Shown: one piece after another, positions 2,035 to 20,321 of the stretch
Layout: the number at the start of each line of letters is the position of its first letter
Position numbering within the stretch: the first letter of the stretch is position 1
Virus genome (UHGV): UHGV-0122335
DNA length: 20,321 nt
Reading direction: 5' to 3' (one strand)
DNA from: a virus
Position numbers and translations under genes: made by a program
The notes under the pieces: generated by a model
The model's database searches: none
The model's input: the letters and a program-made list of their open reading frames with translations, nothing else
Told to the model about the DNA's origin: nothing

Positions 2035-2639
2035 CAGGACAACCTCGCAATGGTAAACTCGTCAACCGGTGGCTGTGGTTCCTGTGATTCATTCTGGCTA
2101 TGCGAGCCAGCACTAAGAATCACGCGATTGTACATATTGAGGGCAAACGTACCGAGGTCTGCATTCCCAGTCAGCGCCATGTTAATGGCTGCCGCAAGAC
2201 GCCAGGCCAACGCCTCCATAAAAATGGCATCAAACATGTTCACATCTGAAACGCGAGATACATACTTGAGCCATGCCTGCGGCTGGTCTGTGTAGATCAA
2301 CTTTCCTGTTCCGTTGGTGTCTGCACCAACTTCGTACTGAACGCGCATTGCTGCTGTTGGATTGCGTACACCAGGAAGCATAATTTCAGTAATGCGCAGA
2401 CAATCGGACGGGTACTGGTACGCATATTCCCAGTCAGGCGGTGGATTGCTCGTATCTGCAAGCGCCACGCGTTTGGTAGCAAAGTTCCAGTCAAAATCAG
2501 AAAGCACAGCATCACGGCAGGCCTCAAAGTGCAGCGAACATTCCCCCGCTTCCTTGCTGGCTTCCGTCAGGCTGTTAATACTGCGGCTGTTGCCAATATT
2601 GGACAGCGCACGATTGCAGATCTCTACTACAGAGGCCAT
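2034..2639 (-). CDS. Putative virion/tail adaptor protein (201 aa)
   Basis: ORF track 201 aa; ATG at 2639..2637 with AGGAG about 12 nt upstream; sits in the morphogenesis module and is coupled to the downstream large gene. Function inferred from position. Confidence 0.55.
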   Translation of the reverse strand: MASVVEICNRALSNIGNSRSINSLTEASKEAGECSLHFEACRDAVLSDFDWNFATKRVALADTSNPPPDWEYAYQYPSDCLRITEIMLPGVRNPTAAMRVQYEVGADTNGTGKLIYTDQPQAWLKYVSRVSDVNMFDAIFMEALAWRLAAAINMALTGNADLGTFALNMYNRVILSAGSHSQNESQEPQPPVDEFTIARLS

Positions 2640-2661
2640 AAGTTTCTATACTCCTGCAATA

Positions 2662-2679
2662 AAGGGGCCGAAGCCCCTT
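2662..2679 (-). other. Intergenic stem-loop (AAGGGGC-cgaa-GCCCCTT) between two virion genes
   Basis: Perfect 7-bp inverted repeat with 4-nt loop in the 56-bp gap between 2639 and 2696. No strong U-tract follows on the minus strand, so it is more likely an mRNA stability or attenuation hairpin than a full terminator. Confidence 0.3.
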
Positions 2680-2695
2680 GTCTGATTCGCGAGGC

Positions 2696-3031
2696 TTACA
2701 CGCCCAGTTCTTTACGCTTATCTGCGATCTTCTCGCGGAGCGTTTCGGCTTTGGCGTTATGGTGTGGCTTCTCGTTAAAGAGCAATTCGTACTCTTCACG
2801 GAGCTTATCCAGTTCACCATCATCTGACACATCGTTGATGATTTTGGTGCTGGTTGCTGCCATTGACACCTTTCCTGCAACTTTTGCTTTTGCCTGTCTG
2901 GCTGCATCGTTAACAGGTTCCAGTGCGCTACCAGGCTCACCTTCGTATTCGATTTCTGCCCCCTCCGGCCACAGAGTGTTATGGATATGAGAGAGGCGCA
3001 GAACGCGGTATCTTGGTTTCTCACCTGACAT
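2696..3031 (-). CDS. Hypothetical virion-module protein (111 aa from ATG 3031; track gives a GTG start at 3040)
   Basis: ORF track 2696..3040; internal ATG at 3031 is preceded by AAGGTGA; lies between capsid-region genes. Confidence 0.5.
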   Translation of the reverse strand: MSGEKPRYRVLRLSHIHNTLWPEGAEIEYEGEPGSALEPVNDAARQAKAKVAGKVSMAATSTKIINDVSDDGELDKLREEYELLFNEKPHHNAKAETLREKIADKRKELGV

Positions 3032-3041
3032 CAATATCACC

Positions 3042-3479
3042 TTAACCAGTTACTTTTGAGCGGATCGGATACGGCGTATTGGCATCAACATCAAGATTGA
3101 TACCCGCAGTGAATTTGCCAGCCGTTAGTGGGCCAGTTGCGACGGAGTAGTTAACACGCAGATATCGCTGAACACCGGCAGGCACCTTTGCAGAAACAAC
3201 TCGCTTACCTGCTGTCAGGGGGGCCTTTGCCAGTGCGCCACTATCATAAATAGTGGACCATGAGCTGTTATTCTCACTCGTCTGCAACTGGATGTTTACA
3301 GTTGCCTCACCACTTGCCGTGGCGGCTTCGTTAACCAGCACCCAAAACTCAAGCGGGTAACCCACACCGATATCGCGACGGTTTCCGTCAATTGGACCGA
3401 GATCGATTACGTCAGTAGAAGCCGCGGTATCAGTTACCGCCTGTGCTTCGGAGAACATCAACAGTTTGTCGGTGATCAT
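3042..3479 (-). CDS. Hypothetical virion protein (145 aa), possible head decoration or accessory protein
   Basis: ORF track; ATG at 3479 with GGAGA upstream; immediately downstream of the major capsid gene. Product inferred from position. Confidence 0.55.
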   Translation of the reverse strand: MITDKLLMFSEAQAVTDTAASTDVIDLGPIDGNRRDIGVGYPLEFWVLVNEAATASGEATVNIQLQTSENNSSWSTIYDSGALAKAPLTAGKRVVSAKVPAGVQRYLRVNYSVATGPLTAGKFTAGINLDVDANTPYPIRSKVTG

Positions 3480-3494
3480 CTTCTTTCTCCATTA

Positions 3495-3514
3495 GTGGGC
3501 CTGTTGCGGCCCAC
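3495..3514 (-). other. Stem-loop immediately after the major capsid gene (GTGGGCC-tgttgc-GGCCCAC)
   Basis: 7-bp perfect inverted repeat 17 nt downstream of the capsid stop codon; no U-run, so probably a stability hairpin or partial terminator. Confidence 0.3.
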
Positions 3515-3530
3515 AGGTTAATAACAGGCG

Positions 3531-4517
3531 TTACACCACGCGGGCTTCTGTTTCCAGAAGTGCGTCAGTTTCACGAATCGGCACACCACGAAGTGCTGTC
3601 CACCATTCGCCTTCTGTCTCTTTCACGCTGATCGCCAGAGAACTCTTCTCCAGAGATTGCAGGTCAAGCACTTCGTTAATGGTTCTGTTCATGTAGAAAA
3701 CAGGACGTCCCATCCCACGATTTGGGATTCGATGAAGGGCACGAATCATCAGTTTTGCGATATTCGCGGCAGTAGAAGGAGCGTCAAGATTACTGACATC
3801 AATGTTTGCGATACGAACTACATAGCGCCAGTCACGTAATGTCAGCCCGTTGTCCCACTTATAATGGGTACGATAACCTTCGTACTTGCCGCCTTTAGCA
3901 TCTTCCAGTGTCACCTGGCCTTTATCTTCCATCTGAATGCCAGCCTTCTGTCCTTTCGGGAAGATGCCATGCACGGTGTTTTCGCCCCACACCACTAACC
4001 AGATTGAAGTGTTATCTGTACCCGTGCCACCAGCATCAATGATGTTCTGAGCATTACCCGCAGACAGGCTGGAATAGCGGGAGGACAGTCCCATAAACTG
4101 CTGAGGGTTAACGCTGGAATCACCGTAAAACAGTGTCTGCGCCATCGCCTGATTCATCGCTTCAATAAATGCTCGGTCTTCAGACAGACGGAATTCGGCA
4201 GTATTACCGTTCAGATCAGCCAGAGACTTATCGACTTCAGCATAGGTTTCCAGCATGCCAATGGAATCGGTGACCTGCACTGTGGTTGATTTGCTTGGCT
4301 GTACGCCATAGTTCAGCAAACGCCAGGTAGCAGAAGGTAAACCAGAACGAATGGTGGTTCGGTGTCCGGTAGGAAGGTTTCCTTCAACAAAAGGCATATC
4401 CTGAAGAATTGGGTTAGTTTGATTGAGAAGCTCGATAATCTTATCGACTTTCCCATTTGGATCGACGCGCTTACCCCAGTCAGCCAGCGTTAGCGCAGTT
4501 AAGCCTTTAACAGACAT
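3531..4517 (-). CDS. Major capsid protein (328 aa)
   Basis: ORF track; ATG at 4517 with strong GGAGGAGA-type RBS; size and position (after portal and an acidic scaffold-like protein) are typical of a major capsid protein. No sequence match was confirmed. Confidence 0.7.
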   Translation of the reverse strand: MSVKGLTALTLADWGKRVDPNGKVDKIIELLNQTNPILQDMPFVEGNLPTGHRTTIRSGLPSATWRLLNYGVQPSKSTTVQVTDSIGMLETYAEVDKSLADLNGNTAEFRLSEDRAFIEAMNQAMAQTLFYGDSSVNPQQFMGLSSRYSSLSAGNAQNIIDAGGTGTDNTSIWLVVWGENTVHGIFPKGQKAGIQMEDKGQVTLEDAKGGKYEGYRTHYKWDNGLTLRDWRYVVRIANIDVSNLDAPSTAANIAKLMIRALHRIPNRGMGRPVFYMNRTINEVLDLQSLEKSSLAISVKETEGEWWTALRGVPIRETDALLETEARVV

Positions 4518-4531
4518 TGTTATCTCCTCTC

Positions 4532-5227
4532 TTATTTGCCATAGAGCACTTCGGCCGCACTACGCTGGCCTTCATTACCACCGGTGACCATGCCATCTTC
4601 AGACATAGCCTTTCCGATTTTCACGAACGTTTTGACCAGATCAGGGTGATTACCCAGCCCGGTGGTGTTCAGATATTCTTTGAGTTCAGGTGTCCCGAAC
4701 TGGTCAAGCGCACGCTGTGCGGCGCTAAGGTTAGAAATCAACTTGTCGCCACCGATTTCTTTGTCAGCTTTTACATCCGCAGCCCACTGCTCGGTTGTTT
4801 TCTGCCAGGCTTCTGCCTGGCGCTGCTGAACACCTGCCAGAATTTTCGGATAAGCATCAACCAGCTTTTGCGCTTGCTCGTTGGTCAGGTTAAGTTCTCG
4901 CGCCACCGGCTCGAACTCCTTCAACGCTTCTGTATCCAGCTCTACGCCTTCGGCAGCCTGAAACTCGTACTTCTCAGGCGCACCCTCTGGTTTATCGCCG
5001 TCCTTTTTTTCATCCTGCTTATCGTTTTCAGGCTTTTTGTCATCAGCAGGTTTATCGCCATCAGCAACAGGTTGTGGCTTATCACCTTCCTGTTGTGATG
5101 GATCACCAACTGGAGCAGGGTTATCACCTGCAGGCGCTGACGGTTCTGACGCAGCCGGAGCTGCTCCACCATCGACTGGTTGCTCATTGCAAAGACGGCG
5201 ATACAGCAAACGCTCAAATAAATTCAT
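4532..5227 (-). CDS. Scaffolding (capsid assembly) protein, acidic and helical (about 231 aa)
   Basis: ORF track 4532..5233; ATG at 5227 with AGGAG 5 nt upstream; highly acidic D/E/K/P-rich N-terminal half; located between portal and capsid genes. Confidence 0.55.
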   Translation of the reverse strand: MNLFERLLYRRLCNEQPVDGGAAPAASEPSAPAGDNPAPVGDPSQQEGDKPQPVADGDKPADDKKPENDKQDEKKDGDKPEGAPEKYEFQAAEGVELDTEALKEFEPVARELNLTNEQAQKLVDAYPKILAGVQQRQAEAWQKTTEQWAADVKADKEIGGDKLISNLSAAQRALDQFGTPELKEYLNTTGLGNHPDLVKTFVKIGKAMSEDGMVTGGNEGQRSAAEVLYGK

Positions 5228-5229
5228 GA

Positions 5230-5526
5230 TCACTCCTGTTCACTGGCCTCTTTGGCCATCTTCAAATACTGTTCAGGGCAATGCGCCATAACGCGCTGAA
5301 ACAGTTCCAGCGCCAGATTGCGTTGCCCCTCATTAAATGCCATTGCCATAGCGTCCATCGGTGAGATAGCGGAAAACACCCGGCCTTTCTCCAGCACAGA
5401 CCAGACAACGCGACGCCCCTGTTCACTGCTCATGACAAAGCGAATGTCATCAATTTCACGCTGTGCCATGTCACGTTGCTTACGGGCGTTTTCTTCTTTC
5501 AGTTGATCGTCTTCGTAATCTGTCAT
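5230..5526 (-). CDS. Hypothetical protein (98 aa) between portal and scaffold
   Basis: ORF track; its ATG overlaps the portal stop (ATGA), suggesting translational coupling. Confidence 0.55.
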   Translation of the reverse strand: MTDYEDDQLKEENARKQRDMAQREIDDIRFVMSSEQGRRVVWSVLEKGRVFSAISPMDAMAMAFNEGQRNLALELFQRVMAHCPEQYLKMAKEASEQE

Positions 5527-7202
5527 TGTGATTGCCCACCCTGACCACTAACTGCATTCGCCATAGCTGACAAAACACTCGGATCCGAAGTTTTAGCTTC
5601 GCTTAGCGTCTTGGCACCCTGTGCCGCCGCCATCCCCATCGCCATCATTTGTTGCTGCTGTTGTTGCTGTGCCCGTTGCTGGCGAGCCTGCTCAACCTGT
5701 TCCTGCGGAACAATGACGGTTGGAGACACTCCGGACATATCAGCGAATGCATCGATCGCCTGATCAACGTTGAGTTTGTCGAAAGCTTCTGGTTTCGCTT
5801 GCGCAAGTTGACCAATGAAGTTAACCGTGGACGCCAGACTGGACAGGCCGATAGACTTCTGCGCCTGAGCCATGACAGAAATGTATTCGACCTTCAGGGG
5901 CATACCTTCCATCGCGTCAGGCGGTGGCGGCAGCATGTTTTTACGCACCATCATCGAGAAAGCGCGGTCAATGAGAGGATTAAGACATTCGTCGTTCAGA
6001 CGCTCCAGAACCGGCCCCAACATCAGAAGCTTTTCTTCTTTCATTTCGATCACCGCTTCAACAGGCATTGAGCGGGTATTGATGTTCTGCAACATCATGA
6101 ACAGATCGACGAAGTAGGCGCTGTTAATGATTTGACGAGTGTCCTGAATGTCTGCCACCAAATCTGCTGTACTGGGGTTAACCAGATAAGCAGGCCTGAA
6201 GCCATCCTGACCAGTAATCTGATCGATATACGTGATGTCGCCAGGAAGAAGGGAGGCGCGCTGATTCTTGAGGGAAGTCGGAGCAACCATCGGCGGATTG
6301 GTGGCTTTATCAATCAACTGCGACTTGCGCTTCTGGAGAAGCTGCAATGCCTTAACAGGTCCAAGCGCCAGCATACCCGGGCATGATGATCCATAAACAT
6401 CTTCGCCGTTAACTTCCCAGCGCGGAGCCATAATTGGAAACTCATCGAATCCGGACTCGCGCAACAACTTGTCGTTATCGCCACCAACCTCGTAATAAAC
6501 CGATTTGAATGGCTTGTTCTTGCTATCCAGCTTCGATGCATCGCGGTCAATGTTCGGGTAAACCGAATGCATCACTTCAATCCACTTCTCGTAGGTGCCG
6601 CTTTCCCACATGCTTTTTACGGATTCGCTGACGTTATTTAGCCCGAACTCCTGAACAAGCTGACGAACAGTCATAGAGAACTTGCGAAAACAGGTGTCCA
6701 CACTGCCACGAGGTGAGTTAGCCAGGTAGTAACTGCCTATCGGGAATGGCATTGTGCGAATGATGTCCTCGTCATCCTCCAGCACTGCCATTGCACCAGT
6801 GCTGTATGTGCCGAGGCTTCCGTATAACTGCGGCAGAGACTGATAGAGATTCGACTTATTGAACATATCGTTCATGCGGTTCTGCACCGCCTCAAGCCAC
6901 AACTTAACAGGGCCATAATCCATCATTTCAGGATCTGGCGTAGCCAGGCGAAACCACGGACGCGCGGGGCTTGTGATGCCTGACATCATGCCGCTGGCGA
7001 GAGTGCGCGCCGCCATAGTCCCGGTCGAATCAATAATACGTGTATTGCGTCGATCGTTACGGTTGACCTCAGAAGTCAGAAAGCGGGAACCACGCGGGTT
7101 GATGTAATCACTCAACTCGCGCCAGTGCGGCTCGAACGATTGACGCTCGCTTTCAAGTTGTGCGAACTGTTTGTTCAATCGCTCTTTAGTTGTTTCCGCC
7201 AT
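5523..7202 (-). CDS. Portal (head-tail connector) protein, 559 aa, with Q/A-rich C-terminal tail
   Basis: ORF track; ATG at 7202 with GGAG RBS; size and position after terL; C-terminal poly-Q/Ala-rich tail resembles T7-type head-tail connector proteins (recollection, not a search). Confidence 0.7.
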   Translation of the reverse strand: MAETTKERLNKQFAQLESERQSFEPHWRELSDYINPRGSRFLTSEVNRNDRRNTRIIDSTGTMAARTLASGMMSGITSPARPWFRLATPDPEMMDYGPVKLWLEAVQNRMNDMFNKSNLYQSLPQLYGSLGTYSTGAMAVLEDDEDIIRTMPFPIGSYYLANSPRGSVDTCFRKFSMTVRQLVQEFGLNNVSESVKSMWESGTYEKWIEVMHSVYPNIDRDASKLDSKNKPFKSVYYEVGGDNDKLLRESGFDEFPIMAPRWEVNGEDVYGSSCPGMLALGPVKALQLLQKRKSQLIDKATNPPMVAPTSLKNQRASLLPGDITYIDQITGQDGFRPAYLVNPSTADLVADIQDTRQIINSAYFVDLFMMLQNINTRSMPVEAVIEMKEEKLLMLGPVLERLNDECLNPLIDRAFSMMVRKNMLPPPPDAMEGMPLKVEYISVMAQAQKSIGLSSLASTVNFIGQLAQAKPEAFDKLNVDQAIDAFADMSGVSPTVIVPQEQVEQARQQRAQQQQQQQMMAMGMAAAQGAKTLSEAKTSDPSVLSAMANAVSGQGGQSQ

Positions 7203-7216
7203 TTCAATGACTCCGG

Positions 7217-7423
7217 TTACTGACCAAGCAGCGTTTTACCGCTGGTATTAGCGGTTGATGTGTCGCCCTGAGAACCGGTAAGCAGCGTAGAACTACGACC
7301 AGCAGCAGCGCGACGGCGACGAGTTTCTTCGTCGCGGGCATCAACAACGGCGGCATCCTGCTCCTGTGGTGCTGCCTGAACTTCTGGTGTTGCAGGCACT
7401 GATGGTGAGCTACCCATGCACAT
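7217..7423 (-). CDS. Small acidic S/T/A-rich hypothetical protein (68 aa) upstream of portal
   Basis: ORF track; ATG at 7423 preceded by GGAGTCATTGAT; stop lies 15 nt before the portal ATG. Confidence 0.45.
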   Translation of the reverse strand: MCMGSSPSVPATPEVQAAPQEQDAAVVDARDEETRRRRAAAGRSSTLLTGSQGDTSTANTSGKTLLGQ

Positions 7424-7491
7424 ATCAATGACTCCGTACGCAATTAAATTATTACCAATTTAACCACATATGATTTATTTATCGTAGACAG

Positions 7492-7520
7492 TTGACATTT
7501 AATGCACGAATTATTACCTT
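7492..7520 (+). promoter_or_regulatory. Candidate sigma70 promoter (TTGACA at 7492-7497 with a weak -10) upstream of the tRNA island
   Basis: Consensus -35 hexamer TTGACA; the downstream -10 is poor (TATTAC/TACCTT region); overlaps the palindrome at 7514..7528. Confidence 0.3.
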
Positions 7521-7528
7521 TAAGGTAA
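7514..7528. repeat. 15-bp near-palindrome TTACCTTTAAGGTAA (copy 1 of 2)
   Basis: Seen directly; a second copy TTACCTTGAAGGTAA lies at 8138..8152; a further palindrome GGTTACTAACC lies at 7545..7555. Confidence 0.5.
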
Positions 7529-7857
7529 CCAAAGAGTTCATTCCGGTTACTAACCTGACTGGCTTGTCGTTAAATTGAACAGGTGGAGTGAGCTTTTATT
7601 TTGAGCAGTACGGCGTATGGCACATGCGACGATAGCGGTCTGGATACGTTTAAGGGGCACCCTCCCTTGCTCGGGCAAACGAACCAGGTAGCCGGAATGT
7701 GCAAGTCGAGCGGTTTTATTCCGCGCACGGGGATTCACCATCCCGGCGATTCGGTGTGACGCCTCGGAAGAGACGAGGGTACAACGATGAGAGCATTGGA
7801 TATTAGCGGGCTGTTCCACCCTACCTGATATCGAGCCAAACCAGTGCTCTCAGCGTT

Positions 7858-7934
7858 GTGGCATTAGCTCAGTTGGACAGAGCAACCGCCTTCTAAGCGG
7901 TTGGTCGCAGGTTCGAATCCTGCATGCCACGCCA
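7858..7934 (+). tRNA. tRNA-Arg (anticodon UCU, reads AGA), CCA encoded
   Basis: Hand-folded cloverleaf: acceptor GTGGCAT/ATGCCAC, D-stem GCTC/GAGC, anticodon stem ACCGC/GCGGT with loop CTTCTAA, T-arm GCAGG-TTCGAAT-CCTGC, discriminator G plus CCA. Phage-borne tRNA-Arg(UCU) is common in lambdoid and Stx-type phages. Confidence 0.9.
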
Positions 7935-7977
7935 GAATCACGCCTAAGGACCGTGATGCCAGAAGTTCCAGGGGATT

Positions 7978-8019
7978 GGCGGTGACTGTTTCCCTTGAAG
8001 GACTATCACCGCCCTTTTT
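7978..8019 (+). terminator. Putative intrinsic terminator downstream of the tRNA
   Basis: GGCGGTGA...TCACCGCC 8-bp stem (long structured loop) followed by CTTTTTTA. Confidence 0.45.
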
Positions 8020-8097
8020 ACAGCAGGACGCCATTGCGATGACTTCATGCTGTAAACCAGTACAGCCACGGAAGGCATAACTCATTGCTTCCAGTTC

Positions 8098-8121
8098 GCC
8101 CGGTTCGCCGGGCATTTTTTT
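8098..8121 (+). terminator. Intrinsic (rho-independent) terminator
   Basis: GCCCGG-ttcg-CCGGGC hairpin followed by ATTTTTTT. Confidence 0.65.
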
Positions 8122-8137
8122 GCCTGGTGACTGAACG

Positions 8138-8152
8138 TTACCTTGAAGGTAA
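8138..8152. repeat. 15-bp near-palindrome TTACCTTGAAGGTAA (copy 2), 33 nt upstream of the moron ATG
   Basis: Seen directly; overlaps a candidate promoter (GTGACT -35 at about 8127, TAAGAT -10 at 8150-8155). Confidence 0.5.
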
Positions 8153-8184
8153 GATAACAAAAACATTTAACATCTGGTTTAGAC

Positions 8185-8790
8185 ATGTTCGAGCAATTTA
8201 AAGAGATCGCATCATCGGCTATTAGCACAGCGTCAGAGAGAGTCCGCAACCCAGCACTTGGGGCATTTGTGTTTTCGTGGTGTTCTTTTAACTGGAATCC
8301 ACTATTATTTTTATTCTTCAGTAAGTCAGGAATTGAAGAAAAAATAAATTATATATCTTCCCATAGTGATGCGTACCACTCACTCTTATATCCAGCTTTA
8401 TGTGCATTCGCGCTGTGTGTAATAGTTCCATGGTTTAACAATATAGTGGTGATGTTTCAAAAAATTCCACTACAGAACATCGATAACTTCAAACACAACA
8501 AAAGCCTCAGGGATGTTAAAAACGCCATAGAATTGCGTAAGCTTGAGGCACAAAGGGACATTACATACGACAGAGTTAAGGTTGAGTTTGAGTCTGAGAT
8601 TCAATTCTATAAAAATGATTTAATCAAGCACCAAGAGTCTTTGAATTCTTTTTTGCAGGAAAGAGATTCCCTTATTGAAAAAATAATGGCGCTTGAAAAA
8701 GAACTTGCAGAAGAAAAAATAAAATCCAATACCAGAATTGCAAATAAGTTTAACTCAAGGAACAATCGCAACACAGACAATGCTGCTTAA
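8185..8790 (+). CDS. AT-rich moron: predicted membrane protein with two hydrophobic segments and a C-terminal coiled-coil (201 aa); function unknown
   Basis: ORF track; strongly AT-rich relative to flanks; opposite strand to the structural operon; hydrophobic stretches LGAFVFSWCSFNWNPLLFLFF and LLYPALCAFALCVIVPWFNNIVVMF followed by a K/E-rich heptad-like region; no obvious SD sequence. Confidence 0.6.
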   Translation: MFEQFKEIASSAISTASERVRNPALGAFVFSWCSFNWNPLLFLFFSKSGIEEKINYISSHSDAYHSLLYPALCAFALCVIVPWFNNIVVMFQKIPLQNIDNFKHNKSLRDVKNAIELRKLEAQRDITYDRVKVEFESEIQFYKNDLIKHQESLNSFLQERDSLIEKIMALEKELAEEKIKSNTRIANKFNSRNNRNTDNAA

Positions 8791-8794
8791 AACT

Positions 8795-10264
8795 TTATGA
8801 AAACGGATCGTACTCAGTAATAGCTTTCCCCTGCTGCTGCCGTGGGTCATTAGTTTTCTTGGCTACCGGGAAGGCGAACGTTAGCAGCAGCGCATCACCT
8901 TTACCCGGCGAACGCCCAAGTCGCTCTTTGATATCTTCCTTCGGTTCGATAACGATTTTACCGTCCACGCGAACTTTGTACTCTGCCGTCGACAGGTCGT
9001 CTGCTGTTTCCTGGTCATCCAGCATCCCGCCCAGCCTCAGCCATGTCTTGCATGAGTTGAACATCTCCCCACGCTTGTTGAGCATCTGCGGGTCAGTAGA
9101 CGCGCCACCGAACGGAACAAGTTGCCATGTACGACCCCAGCCGTCACCGATTGACTTCAGACCAGTTCCGTAACCGAAGTCGATGAACACTGCGTCAGCC
9201 TGGTACTGGTCTTCAAAGTCAGCGATACGCTTCGCCATTATCAGATCGTCAGTGGTCTTGTTGCCAGTCCACAGCACCTTACTGTGCAGCCCCTGCCGCA
9301 GGTATATCACAGCGTCATCAACTCCGGAGTATGCCGGGTCAACGCCGATTATCACCGGAGCATGTGCAACCTGCGCAGCGGTTACCACCCGTTTCATTGC
9401 CTCATCAGTAAGACCGGTAGGGATAAACTGCAATTCAGATGCATCAGGGAATATGCCGCGCACACGGATTTTAACGAAGTCGCTGTCTTCCCCGTAGTCA
9501 TCAACCCATTTCTGCAACTGCTGTTTGTTAGTACCTTCCACCGTCCGGCTGTCAATCTGCGCAGTTTTCCAGCGGTGTTTGTATTTGCGGAAACATTCGC
9601 GAAAACGCCCGGTATTACGTGTAGGGTTTCCGAACGCCACCCAGATAATCTCAGTGTCTTCGTCCGTAAGCGCACCCTCAGCAACTTCCCACACCAGATC
9701 CGCAATGTTCGACGCTTCATCGAATACCACGATGATGCGTTTGCGCTCGTTGTGTAGTCCGGCGAATGCCTCAGTGTTGTGCTCAGACCAGGGGATTGCG
9801 TCAGCTCGCCACCGCTTGTCGTGCCCAGGATCATTGCTGTACATCGCAGTAGCGGTACAGGTAAACCAGTCTTTCGTGATAGCAAGGTTCGACCACTTGA
9901 TAATTTCCGGCCAGGTCTTCGTTCGTAGCTGGTTGTCGGTGTTGGCGGTCACCACGACCTTACAATCCTCGCAAGTGGACATGCCCCAGTTGATCAGCAT
10001 TGAGATGAATGCGGATTTACCAATACCGTGACCAGAAGCGCGTGCCAGCATAAGCGGCTGATAGCGCGTCTCTGGATTCTGCAGGTGATCACGTATCTCT
10101 CGGAACGCATCAGCCTGCCACTGACGTGGGCCGGTAGCATGTGCCAGTTCAGTCCCCTCTTCCCCCCACGGGAACGCATAGAGGGCATAGCCAAGCGGAT
10201 CGTGAGTGAACCCTGCAATATCCTCGATCAACTGCTCTTCAGGAGATAACGCTGTATCTGTCAC
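8795..10264 (-). CDS. Terminase large subunit (489 aa)
   Basis: ORF track; GTG start at 10264 overlapping the terS stop (GTGA) with AGGATGG upstream; size and position immediately downstream of the small subunit and upstream of portal. Confidence 0.8.
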   Translation of the reverse strand: MTDTALSPEEQLIEDIAGFTHDPLGYALYAFPWGEEGTELAHATGPRQWQADAFREIRDHLQNPETRYQPLMLARASGHGIGKSAFISMLINWGMSTCEDCKVVVTANTDNQLRTKTWPEIIKWSNLAITKDWFTCTATAMYSNDPGHDKRWRADAIPWSEHNTEAFAGLHNERKRIIVVFDEASNIADLVWEVAEGALTDEDTEIIWVAFGNPTRNTGRFRECFRKYKHRWKTAQIDSRTVEGTNKQQLQKWVDDYGEDSDFVKIRVRGIFPDASELQFIPTGLTDEAMKRVVTAAQVAHAPVIIGVDPAYSGVDDAVIYLRQGLHSKVLWTGNKTTDDLIMAKRIADFEDQYQADAVFIDFGYGTGLKSIGDGWGRTWQLVPFGGASTDPQMLNKRGEMFNSCKTWLRLGGMLDDQETADDLSTAEYKVRVDGKIVIEPKEDIKERLGRSPGKGDALLLTFAFPVAKKTNDPRQQQGKAITEYDPFS

Positions 10265-10857
10265 TGATTACCATCCTGACGTTCTTTGAGTCGCTTCCTG
10301 GCTGCCGCTATGCGATCAGCAATTGTCACATTCACATTAACATCCAGGCGTTCTTTGAATGCATTGACGTCGACGTGCTTACCAATCAGTTCGAGGTTCT
10401 TCACCTTGTCAGGCCATTTAATTTTTTTGAGAATTGTCTCTATCGAATCCTCGTTCATGTTCATGATGGTCGATGACAGATCAAAGCCACTAAGCGTAGT
10501 GCGCCAGATTTTCGGCCACTCGCGGATTGGCTTAAGGCTCCCATCGTCATTGAGGATATCAATCACGTCCATCTGGTCGATCTCCACCAGGCGCATGAGA
10601 ACGTAATCGGCACTGACGCGCATTCGTTTGTTGCGCTCCTCCATCAACTCGGCAATCCGTTTTTGAATGCGTTCATCGCGCATCATGACACTGGCTTTAA
10701 CTGCCGCTGTATTTGGGGAGAATCCTGCGTTAATCGCTGCCTGAGTCTGGTTTTCAGGCGTTTTGATGTATGACTGGCAATAAGCCTCCTGCATTGCGGT
10801 TAGTGGCTTAAATTGCGTTGATTTGCGTTTATAGGTTTTAGGTTCAGCAGGCATCAT
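10261..10857 (-). CDS. Terminase small subunit (start uncertain: 10857, 10854 or upstream to 10935)
   Basis: ORF track 10261..10935; ATG-ATG at 10857/10854 preceded by GGTGG; basic helical protein directly upstream of and coupled to terL. Confidence 0.6.
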   Translation of the reverse strand: MMPAEPKTYKRKSTQFKPLTAMQEAYCQSYIKTPENQTQAAINAGFSPNTAAVKASVMMRDERIQKRIAELMEERNKRMRVSADYVLMRLVEIDQMDVIDILNDDGSLKPIREWPKIWRTTLSGFDLSSTIMNMNEDSIETILKKIKWPDKVKNLELIGKHVDVNAFKERLDVNVNVTIADRIAAARKRLKERQDGNQ

Positions 10858-10900
10858 AACCACCATGGTAATTGTTACCGTTGTGGTAATAGTACCATGC

Positions 10901-10926
10901 AAAATAAAGCCGCCATAGTTGGCGGC
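10901..10926 (-). terminator. Intrinsic terminator on the minus strand just upstream of terS
   Basis: GCCGCCA-acta-TGGCGGC hairpin followed by UUUAUUUU in the minus-strand transcript. Confidence 0.5.
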
Positions 10927-11010
10927 AGTATTCAAAACCCATCAAATTCATCATGCATAATCTACTCGTGACATGTCACACTATTAATTTCGTTTCATGC
11001 CAGCCTTTAG

Positions 11011-11322
11011 TCACCCAGCATTGCGAGTCACCATTACACGGGCATGAATTAACGGGAACTCTCTCGCCGCACTTACCGCAAAGTTTCTGCTGATCGATTT
11101 TATACGCCCGCGCACACGTGCATCATCCTGGCGGATCAGCAGCGCGATGTACTCGGCCATTTCATAGGGATCGCGACCAGGGCGCCGGGCGGCGCAGTTC
11201 CGCGCCAGCATTTCCTGCTCCTGCTTATCCAGCACCAGTTCAATTTTGCGCTCACCGGCGGCGGACTGCCGAGCGCGCTGCGCGGCTTTGCGTTCTGCGG
11301 GGGATTTAGCCACGAATCGCAC
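11011..11322 (-). CDS. Hypothetical Arg-rich protein (103 aa by track, GTG start with poor RBS)
   Basis: ORF track only; no convincing RBS; lies in the junction region between the early-left genes and terS. Confidence 0.3.
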   Translation of the reverse strand: MRFVAKSPAERKAAQRARQSAAGERKIELVLDKQEQEMLARNCAARRPGRDPYEMAEYIALLIRQDDARVRGRIKSISRNFAVSAAREFPLIHARVMVTRNAG

Positions 11323-11428
11323 TCCACGCCAGATTGATTAATGACTCCCAGGTAATATAAACCCGGATACCAGCAACCAGGCCGAAACCAATCACCATGG
11401 CATAAAGCAGAGCGTTGCACTTGTTCAT
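11306..11428 (-). CDS. Small hydrophobic protein (40 aa), likely membrane peptide
   Basis: Hand-translated (MNKCNALLYAMVIGFGLVAGIRVYITWESLINLAWSAIRG); GGAGG RBS; its ATG overlaps the stop of the upstream DUF551-like gene (TGATG). Below the ORF-track length cutoff. Confidence 0.4.
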   Translation of the reverse strand: MNKCNALLYAMVIGFGLVAGIRVYITWESLINLAWSAIRG

Positions 11429-12195
11429 CACTTCACCTCCTGCGGCGGTTCTGGTAGCGGCATCCAGTGGGTTACTTTCGATGCCGGTTCTTCCCCATCG
11501 TCAGTAACTGCCCACCATTTGTTTCTCGACCAATCGTAATACCCTTCGAAGGTATCGCACTCAGTCCAGCCGTAAGACTTACCCCAACACCAAACATACT
11601 GTTTATCGTTCGGCATTCGCTCACTACAGCTTATCCAACCATCCGGAGTTGCCGGAGTTGGTCCATCGAATTCGGGCATGTCAGGACCTTTTCTGATAGC
11701 TTTAGCCAGCTCCAGCGGGTCATCGTAAAGCCAGTCGCCAGTTTGTGGGTGATTTGCTTCTGCAAGCTGCGCAGCCCATTCAAGACCATCTTTTTGACCT
11801 TGGAGATAATCAAGCGGCAACTCTTCATGATTACTTGCAGGTTCGGCACTATGAAGCATGGCAGCGCGGCAGGCGTTCCAGCCTCTTACCCCTGCAATAG
11901 CGGCAACCGCATCAACCGCGTACATGCTAAGAGGATTAGGAATTGGTTTTTCTTCCGGTACTACTGGCGCTGGAGGGGTGGCGTAGAGTGGAACTCCTCC
12001 CCCTCCACCAGAAAATTCATTGCGAGCGTTATACTCACGACCATCTGCGTCATCACGCATCCACGCCACCGGCTCTGCTTCCAGCGATGCCAGAGCAATT
12101 TCATAAGCACGGCGCTCAATATTGTCTCGCACGTCCAGGCTGCCGATTCGCTCTTTGATTTCTTTAATCAGTTCTTTGTCGGTAAAAGTGGTCAT
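11428..12195 (-). CDS. DUF551-like prophage protein (255 aa; Trp-rich C-terminal domain)
   Basis: ORF track; ATG at 12195 with AAGGAGAG RBS; C-terminal W-rich region (GWISCSERMPNDKQYVWCWGKSYGW...THWMPLPEPP) resembles the DUF551 domain common in lambdoid prophages (recollection). Confidence 0.6.
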   Translation of the reverse strand: MTTFTDKELIKEIKERIGSLDVRDNIERRAYEIALASLEAEPVAWMRDDADGREYNARNEFSGGGGGVPLYATPPAPVVPEEKPIPNPLSMYAVDAVAAIAGVRGWNACRAAMLHSAEPASNHEELPLDYLQGQKDGLEWAAQLAEANHPQTGDWLYDDPLELAKAIRKGPDMPEFDGPTPATPDGWISCSERMPNDKQYVWCWGKSYGWTECDTFEGYYDWSRNKWWAVTDDGEEPASKVTHWMPLPEPPQEVK

Positions 12196-12196
12196 G

Positions 12197-13015
12197 TCAC
12201 TCTCCTTTGATGCGAATGCCAGCGTCAGACATCATATGCAGATACTCAACTGCATCCTGAACCCATTGACCGCCAATCCCGTAATAGCGATGCGTAATGA
12301 TGTCGATAGTTACTAACGGGTCTTGTTCGATTAACTTCCGCAGAAACTCTTCCAGGTCACCAGTGCAGTGCTTGATGACAGGAGTTTTCCCAGGATGGCG
12401 AACAACAAGAAACTGATTTCCGACTTCACGGACTTCGTTGCTTTTCAGTTCTGCAATGCGCTTCTCTGAGGCTTCCAGCTTCTCTCGCATATCGTCAACG
12501 TACTCGACCAGAGAACCGCCAGCAGGAATTTCGCACTCCTCGACCAGTTGGAAGTAGATATCAGCTGCGGCCCGTGTGTTGCTATGCCTAGCGTCGCCCA
12601 TCTCACCTTCACGAAGAGCATCGCGTTCGGCGGTAAGATTGGCTATTTTGCTGTCTTTGCCTTCCAGCTCAACGCGCAGCTTCCCTACCGTTAGCGCAAT
12701 ATCCTCGTTCTCCTGGTCGCGGCGTTTGATGTATTGCTGGTTTCTTTCCCGTTCATCCAGTAATGCCAAGACGGTAGCCGGATTAGCTGCGGCGATGAAT
12801 TCAGCATTGGCCTGCTGTTCCATTTGGAAATCTTCATCGAAACCGCTTTCTGGATGCGCTCCTTCAATTCTGCAAATAGGAATATATCCAGCAACTTCAC
12901 GATGAATTAGCGCATCATCACCATCAAATCGGCTCTCTCCATATTCGAGCGACCATACACCACACGTTGCTTTTTCTGCCTTGGCACGCAGTGCCTGATA
13001 GTCAATCTTGCTCAC
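12197..13015 (-). CDS. Ead/Ea22-like protein (272 aa)
   Basis: ORF track; GTG start at 13015 with AGGAGG 6 nt upstream; central coiled-coil; typical early-left accessory protein of lambdoid phages (family assignment from recollection). Confidence 0.55.
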   Translation of the reverse strand: MSKIDYQALRAKAEKATCGVWSLEYGESRFDGDDALIHREVAGYIPICRIEGAHPESGFDEDFQMEQQANAEFIAAANPATVLALLDERERNQQYIKRRDQENEDIALTVGKLRVELEGKDSKIANLTAERDALREGEMGDARHSNTRAAADIYFQLVEECEIPAGGSLVEYVDDMREKLEASEKRIAELKSNEVREVGNQFLVVRHPGKTPVIKHCTGDLEEFLRKLIEQDPLVTIDIITHRYYGIGGQWVQDAVEYLHMMSDAGIRIKGE

Positions 13016-18069: not shown

Positions 18070-18729
18070 TTAACTAAATGTCTCTTCAGGCCACTGGCTG
18101 GCGATAACTTTCCCTACTACGGAACAGCTATCATTGCATGGAATCATTGGATATTGCGGGTTTAGTGGCTGTAGGAACACCTGACCGCTATCCCTGATCA
18201 GTTTCTTGAAGGTAAACTCGTCACCACCAAGTCTGGCTATGCAGAAATCACCTGGCTCAACAGCCTGCTCAGGGTCAACGAGAATTAACATCCCGTCAGG
18301 AAAGCTTGGCTTGGATCCTGTTGGTGCGGTCATTGAGTTACCTTCAACCTCAAGCCAGAATGCAGAGTCACTGGCTTTTTTGGTTGTGCTGACCCATCTC
18401 TCCGCATCACCTTTGGTAAAGGTTCTAAGCTCAGGCGAGAACATCCCGGCCTGAACATGAGAAAAAACAGGGTACTCATATTGTTTTTTAACGGGGGAAG
18501 ATGAGTATTCGCCAACAGGTGAAAATGTACCGTCGTGGTTGAATGAGACGTTATCAATACCAAGGTATTTAAACACCACACCAATCTCGTCAAGAGATGG
18601 ATGACGAGATCCGCGCAACCAGTGACCAATTCCACCCTGCGTCATACCAAGCTCTTCAGCCAACTTCTCTTGAGTTATGCCGAGCTCTTTCATTCTGGAT
18701 CTAGCCAGTTCATACCATTTCATTTTCAT
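18070..18729 (-). CDS. cI: CI repressor: lambda-like C-terminal dimerisation/autocleavage domain fused to a non-lambda HTH DNA-binding domain
   Basis: C-terminal about 130 aa ([22 protein letters not shown]...[14 protein letters not shown]) are essentially lambda cI; N-terminal about 85 aa differ from lambda. Start taken at MKMKW (18729); the track's upstream extension is probably not translated. Confidence 0.85.
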
Positions 18730-18840: not shown

Positions 18841-19056
18841 ATGAGCAACCTACGTAAATATCGAGAGTCACTGAATATCTCTCAAACAACACTTGCTAAG
18901 GCGGTTGGATGCACACAGGGAGCTATCGGACATTGGGAATCTGGTCGTCGCTTCCCAGACCTTAAAACATGCCGTGCTCTTGTTGAGTGCCTAAACAAGT
19001 TAGGCGCAAAAGTCAGTCTTGATGACGTGTTCCCGCCGGAACACAAAGCCGCTTAA
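18841..19056 (+). CDS. cro: Cro-like HTH repressor (71 aa), non-lambda
   Basis: ATG at 18841 with GGAGGG RBS; HTH motif (ISQTTLAKAVGCTQGAIGHWESG); divergent from cI across the operator region. The longer track ORF 18601..19056 is rejected. Confidence 0.7.
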   Translation: MSNLRKYRESLNISQTTLAKAVGCTQGAIGHWESGRRFPDLKTCRALVECLNKLGAKVSLDDVFPPEHKAA

Positions 19057-19064
19057 GACATTCC

Positions 19065-19096
19065 AGCTCTTACACATCCCAGCCCTGAAAAAGGGC
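19065..19096 (+). promoter_or_regulatory. nutR (boxA AGCTCTTACACAT plus boxB GCCCTGAAAAAGGGC)
   Basis: boxB matches lambda nutR boxB exactly as recalled; boxA is near-identical; lies between cro and cII. Confidence 0.8.
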
Positions 19097-19185
19097 ATCA
19101 AATTAAACCACACCTATGGTGTATGCATTTATTTGCATGCATTCAATCAATTGTTATCTAAGGAAATACTTACATATGGTTCGTG

Positions 19186-19469
19186 CAAACAAACGCAACG
19201 AGGCTCTAAGAATCGAGAGTGCGTTGCTTAACAAAATCGCAATGCTTGGAACTGAGAAGACAGCGGAAGCTGTGGGAGTTGATAAGTCGCAGATCAGCAG
19301 GTGGAAGAGGGACTGGATTCCAAAGTTCTCAATGCTGCTTGCTGTTCTTGAATGGGGCGTCGTTGACGACGACATGGCTCGATTGGCACGACAAGTTGCT
19401 TCGATTCTCACCAATAAAAAACGCCCGGCGGATATTTTCGCTGAGAATCAGTTAACCATGAATTTTTAA
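19186..19469 (+). CDS. cII: Transcriptional activator cII (94 aa), lambda-like with divergent C-terminus
   Basis: MVRANKRNEALRIESALLNKIAMLGTEKTAEAVGVDKSQISRWKRDWIPKFSMLLAVLEWGVVDDDMARLARQV is essentially lambda cII; the last 13 or so residues differ. Confidence 0.85.
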
Positions 19470-19479
19470 GGATGGTCTT

Positions 19480-19908
19480 ATGACTCCGTGTTTGGAATTT
19501 GGCGGTTTAAAGGACAGCAAGGGTTATGGAAGGGTTTGGATTAATGGGAAAAAAGTATTTGCTCATAGATTTGCTTATTGTGTGGCAAAAGGGATCCAGC
19601 TTGAAGATATAGATGGCTTAGTAATTCGTCACGCATGTGACAATCCTTCTTGTATTTTACCTTCTCATTTATGTGCTGGGACAAGTCAGCAAAACGCAAA
19701 TGACATGGTGGAGAGAAAAAGGCAGGCATTTGGAAGCAGGAATGGTAGGGCAAAATTAACTGAAGATGATGTAAGAAACATCATTAGTGAATATATACCA
19801 AGACACCCCTTATTCAACACAAGGGCATTATCAAAAAAATATGGAGTAACGCCAAATTATATAGCTGCCATTTGCAGAGGTGAAAAATGGAAGCACATAA
19901 AAAAATAA
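19480..19908 (+). CDS. HNH homing endonuclease (142 aa), free-standing
   Basis: Cys/His motif region typical of phage HNH endonucleases (HRFAYCVAKG...HACDNPSCILPSHLCAGTSQQNANDM); AAGGA RBS; AT-rich; inserted between cII and the O-like gene. Confidence 0.7.
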   Translation: MTPCLEFGGLKDSKGYGRVWINGKKVFAHRFAYCVAKGIQLEDIDGLVIRHACDNPSCILPSHLCAGTSQQNANDMVERKRQAFGSRNGRAKLTEDDVRNIISEYIPRHPLFNTRALSKKYGVTPNYIAAICRGEKWKHIKK

Positions 19909-19983
19909 AACGCCCGGTGTGCAAGACCGAGCGTTCTGATCAAATACAAATGGAATTTTAACAACATCCAACGAGGTAATTAT

Positions 19984-20256
19984 ATGCGAAACAAAGGCTT
20001 TAATCCACCTGATACACACAAAGAAGCTAAGCGTTTGCGCTTCCTTCGTTCCATTGATGAAAGAACTCAAATCTCTTTTGTGAAAGTTGCCAGAACTGAG
20101 CTTCTGAAGGCTGAGGCGAGGGCGTTGCTCCCGTCTCTACCAAAAGAGGAGGGATATACGTTCATTCCAAACGCATTTCTGGAAAAGCTGATCAAAGAAG
20201 ACATATCCGTAAGTCAGTTTAACGATGTTCTTAAGGTCTTTCGTCAAGGCAGGTAG
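19984..20256 (+). CDS. Hypothetical protein (90 aa), AT-rich
   Basis: ORF track; GAGGT RBS 8 nt upstream; lies between the HNH gene and the O-like gene. Confidence 0.5.
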   Translation: MRNKGFNPPDTHKEAKRLRFLRSIDERTQISFVKVARTELLKAEARALLPSLPKEEGYTFIPNAFLEKLIKEDISVSQFNDVLKVFRQGR

Positions 20257-20258
20257 TT

Positions 20259-20321
20259 ATGAGCAATACAGCAAAAATCTACGATTTCAGCGCCGCACAC
20301 GAGCGCAGGAGCAACAGGATG
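20259..20321 (+). CDS. Replication initiator O-like protein, N-terminal fragment (continues beyond window end)
   Basis: MSNTAKIYDFSAAHERRSNRM resembles the lambda O N-terminus (MTNTAKILNF..., recollection); expected position after cII. Confidence 0.45.
   Translation, partial: MSNTAKIYDFSAAHERRSNRM

Follow-up and report, generated by a model that had tools for sequence, protein, structure and literature searches.

What separates cII from O in the viral genome UHGV-0122335, and how did it come to be there? In phage lambda (J02459), cII (38360-38653) is followed by O at 38686 with no gene between them, as an earlier note on this DNA had rightly stated. The 20,321-nucleotide (nt) stretch of UHGV-0122335 analysed here, called the window throughout, ends on its right in a lambdoid immunity and early-right region with a repressor gene, a Cro-like gene, cII, a gene for an HNH endonuclease of 142 amino acids (aa), a 90-aa open reading frame (ORF) and the start of O (Table 1). 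From the sequence alone, the earlier note had read positions 19470-20258 as an AT-rich insertion of a selfish homing-endonuclease cassette at the cII/O boundary, possibly with the 90-aa ORF as a partner gene. Our comparisons suggest that positions 19429-19917 are probably a free-standing HNH homing-endonuclease element specific for the overlap of cII with oop in lambdoid phages. The element is built like the mobile ORFs of fungal mitochondria that swap the C-terminus of a gene, and would work like the intronless-homing genes of T4-type phages. The idea of a selfish homing cassette is therefore kept, since the gene is rare, looks mobile and encodes a homing-type HNH protein closest to I-HmuI, but the insertion lies inside cII at the oop terminator and not at the cII/O boundary.

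We searched 50,697 phage records, 5426 complete Escherichia coli genomes and IMG/VR contigs. No phage record spans all of 19000-20321 by megablast. Four P22-like phages (JEP4, CUS-3, Gally, and HF4s) match this region in two pieces, skipping ~490 bp. In a pairwise BLAST alignment with JEP4, 19159-19428 is 99.6% identical and 19907-20321 is 99.5% identical, and the two matches overlap by 11 nt of JEP4. The comparison with insert-free phages that the earlier note had proposed, made here with JEP4, CUS-3, and an Stx2a phage, gave exact boundaries. The cassette is 489 bp long and can equally be written as 19418-19906, owing to a flanking repeat of 16 nt whose copies lie 489 nt apart and share the exact core AAAACGCCCGG. 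The junction of the empty allele reads ...AAAACGCCCGG/TGTGCAAGACC..., with the slash at the insertion point. The insert starts at cII codon 85, 41 nt ahead of the cII stop codon, and ends 9 nt past the stop codon of the HNH gene. The divergence of the cII tail described previously is real, but the insert begins earlier than had been supposed, inside codon 85. Likewise, the HNH segment is moderately AT-rich (38.4% GC, where the window averages 48.5% and 3.3% of its 489-nt windows reach so low a value), although the true insert is shorter than the segment first proposed and leaves out the 90-aa ORF.

The gene in front of the endonuclease is a hybrid. Residues 1-84 of its product are of native lambda type and residues 85-97 (ADIFAENQLTMNF) come from the cassette, which supplies an in-frame tail of the same length as the cII tail of lambda. 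The protein ends in ...KKRPADIFAENQLTMNF, whereas lambda and CUS-3 have ...KKRPAATERS(E/D)QIQMEF and JEP4 has VCKTERSDQIQMEF at the same place. The end of cII that the insert displaced has been retained downstream as an untranslated remnant. Together with the repeat (19907-19961), this remnant is identical to the functional cII 3' end of JEP4 at 55 of 55 positions, while the substitute tail matches the native copy past the repeat at only 24 of 46 aligned positions; the native copy is therefore the original one. An ending like Q-[IL]-x-M-x-F is kept in the new tail of three of the four lineages with that tail type. In lambda, the last 16 residues of CII direct its degradation by FtsH (PMC5869508).

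The displaced end of cII also carries the lambda-type oop terminator. The oop gene of lambda overlaps the end of cII by 52 bases, and the OOP RNA terminates at the tO hairpin (PMC5869508). The right junction of the window aligns with the oop region of J02459, and the terminator there is intact, with a predicted RNA fold of -20.6 kcal/mol (z -2.55). The repeated 11 nt correspond to the U-tract and one stem half of tO. The left junction accordingly keeps the KKRP codons and loses the hairpin, the right junction keeps the complete terminator, and the placement of the cassette thereby preserves both. The minus strand of the substitute tail folds no more stably than shuffled sequences (z -0.87), and this tail is predicted to be unable to form a terminator hairpin. 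All carrier lineages keep an oop-type hairpin, and their stems differ by compensatory changes.

Homology to the lambda oop region and a promoter-like site suggest that an OOP-like antisense RNA may be made in this phage. It would be complementary to the cII remnant and not to the translated cII tail. The putative pO-like site was not listed by a consensus promoter scanner, and its -35 hexamer is weak. A search of 18900-20321 against Rfam at E values up to 1 gave no match, which is uninformative on OOP as it apparently has no Rfam family. The native 3' end of the window thus resembles the cII-oop overlap of lambda, with which it aligns, but differs in that the oop overlap of carriers is not part of a translated tail and falls in an untranslated stretch of RNA that separates the HNH gene from its downstream neighbour.

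Table 1. Features of the right end of the window and of the corresponding empty site in JEP4
Feature	Coordinates	Strand	Basis or remark
S24/helix-turn-helix (HTH) repressor	18070-18726	-	Right end of window
Cro-like HTH protein	18841-19056	+	Right end of window
Hybrid cII gene, 97 aa	19176-19469	+	Pfam Phage_CII 2.7e-45; alignment with JEP4, CUS-3, and lambda
Direct repeat, left copy, AATAAAAAACGCCCGG	19413-19428		Repeat search; oop U-tract and one stem half in the empty allele
Inserted cassette (probable homing element), 489 bp	19429-19917	+	Absent with exact junctions from JEP4, CUS-3, and Stx2a phage 981509
Substitute cII tail, 13 codons, in frame, ending in TAA	19429-19469	+	Alignment, translation
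Spacer with Shine-Dalgarno-like motif TAAGGATGG, overlapping the cII stop	19470-19479	+	Read from the sequence
142-aa HNH ORF	19480-19908	+	ORF list, Pfam, PHROG, structure model
Direct repeat, right copy, AAAATAAAACGCCCGG	19902-19917		Repeat search; overlaps the HNH stop at 19906-19908
Putative OOP-like antisense RNA, ~70 nt	19903-19972	-	Lambda oop homology and promoter-like site
Lambda-type oop terminator (tO), intact	19907-19937	-	Terminator scan; 12-pair stem, then U-tract to ~19897
Native cII 3' end, untranslated remnant (..VCKTERSDQIQMEF*)	19918-19962	+	Alignment with JEP4
Putative pO-like promoter, TGGATT-17 nt-TATAAT	19979-20007	-	Read from the sequence; position equivalent to lambda pO
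90-aa ORF	19984-20256	+	PHROG 2519; resident gene, outside the cassette
Empty site of JEP4 (MT740315), ...ATTCTCACCAATAAAAAACGCCCGGTGTGCAAGACCGAGCGTTCTGATC...	~29250-29340 (JEP4)		

The protein encoded by the cassette resembles a homing-type nuclease by several measures. The assignment as an HNH endonuclease made from the sequence alone is borne out by a match to Pfam HNH_3 (PF13392; 28.9 bits against a cutoff of 24.8, E 9.1e-07), and the ORF also matches PHROG 59, annotated as HNH endonuclease (3e-28). H51, C53, D54, N55, C58, H63, and N72 are invariant in 21 homologues and comprise the catalytic His, the metal-binding Asn and a Cys/His zinc loop. A profile search of PDB sequences recovered I-HmuI (E 2.9e-4 over nearly the full length) and, more weakly, I-PpoI. 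The AlphaFold2 model, with a mean predicted local distance difference test score (pLDDT) of 87.3, shows a beta-beta-alpha nuclease followed by a helical C-terminal HTH module. Its best Foldseek match in the PDB is 1u3e_M, the structure of I-HmuI (probability 1.00, 148 aligned columns), with a template modelling (TM) score of only 0.42 because the model is extended. Judged from these results, it is plausible that the 142-aa protein is an active, sequence-specific nuclease or nickase.

I-HmuI (PDB 1u3e, from Bacillus phage SPO1) is likewise a small modular enzyme with an N-terminal His-Me/HNH nuclease and a C-terminal HTH DNA-binding module, although the two proteins share only 18% sequence identity. 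The I-HmuI gene resides in a group I intron, and its product nicks a single strand. The gene described here differs in being free-standing: it has its own Shine-Dalgarno motif, there is no intron, and Rfam detected no intron or other RNA family in 18900-20321. The equivalent of the Shine-Dalgarno-like motif is TAGGAG in three related loci (L037, L041, and L044). The zinc-loop motif H-x-C-D-N-x-x-C-x-x-P-x-H-L also resembles that of I-PpoI. The gene is under strong purifying selection: the ratio of nonsynonymous (dN) to synonymous (dS) substitution rates is 0.044 between L041 and L044, and other pairs have dN values of 0.10-0.28 with saturated synonymous sites.

The HNH gene is far from universal. 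The cassette region (501 nt) was found at 99.6-100% identity in 6 of the 5426 complete E. coli genomes and in three IMG/VR contigs, and in none of the 50,697 phage records, even at blastn sensitivity. The empty junction, in turn, was matched in 801 E. coli genomes, in 368 of them over at least 80% of the query (the six carriers are among these 368, with their match broken into two parts). The carriers are not copies of one prophage, because two of them, W46 and M160133, differ in cII body, cI/cro pair or replication module. In W46, both the cI/cro pair and the replication module are different, and homology to the window stops at 19957, the end of the cII remnant. M160133 and one IMG/VR contig have a 933W-type cII body without BLASTP similarity to the cII of the window, and the homology resumes at 19407, only 22 nt ahead of the junction. 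At the same junction, two cII genes that share no detectable similarity are followed by genes for 100% identical HNH proteins.

Presence or absence of the cassette is polymorphic at one precise site, as seen in three pairs of empty and occupied alleles with exact junctions. For the lambda-type cII, the window is occupied and JEP4 and CUS-3 are empty. For the 933W-type cII, M160133 is occupied and Stx2a phage 981509 (LC487996) is empty with the same breakpoints. For the Enterobacter-type cII, one locus (L042) is occupied and two (L138 and L141) are empty at the same insertion point.

These observations bear on the main rival explanation, in which the gene is passive mosaic cargo. It would have been captured once behind cII by illegitimate recombination at A-rich microhomology and then spread by homologous recombination, with the cII site not targeted and the nuclease serving another purpose, such as attack on host or competitor DNA or as an aid to packaging. 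Lambdoid mosaics do have module junctions at the end of cII, with differing downstream modules, the cassette is rare, and both the flanking repeat and the position of the HNH stop codon inside the A-run are compatible with a microhomology join. An identical insertion point in cII bodies without similarity, where the shared sequence reaches only 22 nt from the left junction, is less easily explained in this way. The closest solved homologue is, in addition, a homing enzyme.

More distant endonucleases extend the comparison. Protein searches identified HNH homologues at 83, 71, 63, and 57% identity, and a further one at 69% was predicted from the odd cII tail of one protein (P0076) and then found. 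Genomic context was compared for the lineages at 83, 71, 69, and 57%, leaving out the 63% homologue (P0004). In all four, the HNH gene lies directly behind a Phage_CII gene and ahead of quite different replication modules. All four also share one layout: the in-frame cII tail has diverged, a Shine-Dalgarno motif lies where cII stops, and the HNH gene is followed by the native tail with hairpin and U-tract; this combination of a foreign tail and a retained native tail is found in L037, L041, L044, and L042. The HNH gene ends in AAAAA(A)TAA inside the A-run in the 83, 71, and 69% lineages, whereas the 57% copy (L042) stops early at an in-frame TAG. L041 and L044 have AAAAATCCCCG as their flanking repeat in place of AAAACGCCCGG, and so the flanks go with the local cII allele and the core with the HNH lineage.

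Relatives at or below 49% identity were never found near cII (about 27 loci in one set and 87 in another). A scan of one genome per species in GTDB with a profile of the clade returned only relatives at 36-49% in non-enteric bacteria, none of them near cII, which is uninformative on host range, and a second scan of IMG/VR with a profile gave no further members at 55-85% identity. Passive spread is disfavoured by this constancy of position across deep divergence: five lineages with 49-85% pairwise protein identity share position and layout, in contrast to their more distant relatives. It is also disfavoured by the swapped tail, as a substitute tail followed by a remnant is the signature of endonuclease-driven mobile ORFs (PMC3630166). 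We consider passive cargo improbable as a full account.

Two loci suggest how copies may be lost. In L042 (1080-1560), an in-frame TAG interrupts the 57% HNH gene after 133 codons and homology continues past it, which reflects either a decaying copy or a sequencing error. In L046 (2501-2881; P0027), a cII gene with the foreign tail as far as ...AENQL continues in frame into what remains of the 90-aa ORF, its C-terminal half, and the HNH gene and the native cII remnant are deleted. Both loci fit the cycle of invasion, decay and loss expected for homing-endonuclease genes.

The same loci bear on whether the protein has instead been domesticated as a weapon or regulator, which either excludes or degrades rival lambdoid phages through cuts at the conserved cII/oop site or binds there to tune the lysis-lysogeny decision and is kept for the benefit of the carrier. 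Strong purifying selection, a location in the early pR operon beside the decision genes, and the altered cII tail and oop overlap would agree with such a role, as would the number of potential competitors, given that target-like sequence is present in 1935 of the 5426 E. coli genomes. However, the gene is sporadic and some copies are decayed or deleted, a pattern more in keeping with a selfish cycle than with a beneficial gene that has become fixed, and the HNH ORF matched no defence-system model in PADLOC and no NCBIfam family (nor did the 90-aa ORF). We regard domestication as very unlikely to be the explanation, although a competitive benefit does not exclude homing and the two could coexist.

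The proposal that the HNH gene and the 90-aa ORF form a two-gene cassette between cII and O rested on both being located there and absent from lambda. The comparison of empty and occupied alleles refutes it, as the breakpoints exclude the 90-aa ORF and each gene occurs without the other. The 90-aa ORF, a full-length member of PHROG 2519 with a GC content of 44%, lies outside the breakpoints and is present in insert-free relatives. It was detected in 57 phage records, all of them lacking the HNH gene; JEP4, CUS-3, HF4s, and ~50 Stx2a phages carry it in this way. It is therefore a resident gene and not a partner. Conversely, W46, L037, L041, L042, and L044 have the HNH gene without the 90-aa ORF. 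A two-gene cassette can be set aside with near certainty.

We propose that the endonuclease would be expressed from pR, behind cII, during infection or induction, and would nick or cut insert-free cII/oop sites of co-resident lambdoid phages or prophages. Its recognition site would straddle the insertion point and hence be split in carriers. Recombinational repair from the carrier would then copy the cassette in, homology being provided on one side by the cII body and on the other by the retained cII 3' end, and the diverged tail would make the carrier allele uncleavable while leaving CII functional. As a side effect, the FtsH-signal region of CII would be changed in carriers and would no longer overlap the OOP antisense RNA.

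This mechanism has counterparts in two groups of mobile genes. In fungal mitochondria, mobile ORFs (mORFs) in Allomyces atp6 and in Glomus atp6, atp9, cox2, and nad3 consist of a foreign in-frame C-terminal sequence and an endonuclease ORF, with the native C-terminal sequence downstream (PMC3630166). As in the window, the native copy hardly differs from that of relatives, and it is the inserted copy that has diverged much further (PMC3630166). The mORFs differ in encoding LAGLIDADG or GIY-YIG endonucleases instead of an HNH enzyme and in residing in an organelle and not a phage genome. Unlike in mORFs, the segment duplicated here also encodes an antisense-RNA terminator, which is intact and shows compensatory changes between lineages. 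The free-standing homing genes of T4-like phages (such as mobE and segB) are proposed to spread by cutting genomes that lack the endonuclease, upon which they are copied with flanking DNA (PMC2790892, PMC2988022, PMC2330249). Such genes share with the cassette a stand-alone endonuclease within or between conserved phage genes and a presence/absence polymorphism; they differ in belonging to virulent T-even phages and in being usually intergenic, whereas the cassette sits within a coding sequence of temperate lambdoid phages and comes with a substitute end for that gene. Full-text literature searches returned no paper describing an HNH element in cII/oop.

Several points weigh against homing. 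The right flank of W46 combines a TGTGCAAGA loop with lambda-like sequence downstream, and the same combination is found in empty sites at 99.2%, so that no conversion tract can be inferred from it; the want of a co-conversion signal is also what passive cargo would lead one to expect. Ordinary lambdoid module exchange at conserved junctions could by itself be enough to disseminate a linked gene. From the A-run onward, the right junction restores almost all of the native sequence, and self-immunity would therefore need the enzyme to read bases upstream of the A-run as well. A flanking repeat of 11-16 nt is unusual as a homing product, and the rarity of the cassette (~0.1% of genomes) is unlike a strongly driving element, unless loss is fast. 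The cleavage target is, moreover, a predicted one.

If homing does operate, the cassette provides a clear example of a site-specific homing-endonuclease element for temperate lambdoid phages, the classic model of the lysis-lysogeny decision, and indicates that the strategy of fungal mitochondria to "bring your own gene end" is also used in phages. The predicted target of ~30-40 bp, the cII/oop overlap, is present in roughly a third of E. coli genomes. More tentatively, cuts by the enzyme at the boundary between immunity and replication could help drive lambdoid mosaicism.

It is possible, although we hold it only tentatively, that the cassette also rewires the lysis-lysogeny decision. CII would receive a new FtsH-signal tail, the translated cII would be uncoupled from OOP and RNase III, and the endonuclease mRNA would end at the OOP-paired region. 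As part of the same idea, and with equal reserve, the cassette may have chosen and duplicated a doubly constrained stretch that encodes both the CII degradation tail and the OOP RNA with its terminator. Should the rewiring be true, carriers would differ measurably in CII half-life and lysogenisation frequency. Carriers separate the CII degradation tail from the OOP overlap and so offer natural alleles for testing the roles of OOP and of the CII C-terminus. In RefSeq the gene is annotated plainly as HNH endonuclease, and current records overlook the oop terminator, the hybrid nature of cII and the pseudogene remnant of its 3' end.

Some further observations concern the cII site. The left junction (19403-19449) is an imperfect palindrome (GATTCTCACCAATAAAAAACGCC / GGCGGATATTTTCGCTGAGAATC) with 17 of 23 positions complementary and a 1-nt spacer, such that the first 23 nt of the inserted cII tail resemble an inverted copy of the 23 nt upstream. 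The other lineages do not clearly share this palindrome, and it folds no better than shuffled sequences. The cII proteins P0043 and P0055-P0059 are 100% identical to the cII of the window through ...LTNK, after which a change of frame at the A-run (AATAAAAAACG) leads into long aberrant tails. We considered these as other insertions at the same site and rejected them as A-run frameshifts; the A-run in the oop U-tract looks like a hot spot of slippage or sequencing error. An unusual cII tail was also rejected as a general marker of the HNH gene: it held for P0076, but P0050, P0137, and P0127 proved to be natural empty alleles.

Other nuclease genes were seen in related early regions. In the 71% lineage, L041 encodes a 201-aa protein with T5orf172/MUG113 domains (3516-4121), directly after the cII remnant and ahead of the replication genes. 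These domains are GIY-YIG-related, so that this boundary may hold a second mobile nuclease gene. Further free-standing HNH genes are present in related prophages (L004, 9880-10407; L006, 1452-1979), in the gap between a ninB-like gene and an adenine methyltransferase gene and in that between ssb and a Rad52-family recombinase gene. Lambdoid early regions may thus host several such HNH elements.

The start region of the 90-aa ORF sits where the O start and pO lie in lambda. We rejected the ORF as a diverged fragment of O, as its match to Phage_rep_O (residues 55-88 against the N-terminal part of the profile) is below threshold (E 0.022) and BLASTP against the adjacent O gave an E value of 0.62. 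The start of O itself (20259-20321) is annotated inconsistently among relatives: CUS-3 uses the ATG at 20259, and RefSeq/PGAP and JEP4 use the ATG at 20319. By reading, the CUS-3 start (MSNTAKIYDF...) resembles the beginning of lambda O.

The remainder of the window includes head genes on the minus strand, which lie in positions 1-13014 and encode the capsid protein, a Bbp16-type cement protein, a protease, the portal protein and the terminase subunits. A tRNA-Arg(TCT) gene lies among them on the plus strand (7858-7934). The left 13 kb is 99.8% identical to prophages of many E. coli genomes and the whole window is held by no complete genome, indicating that the phage is a mosaic.

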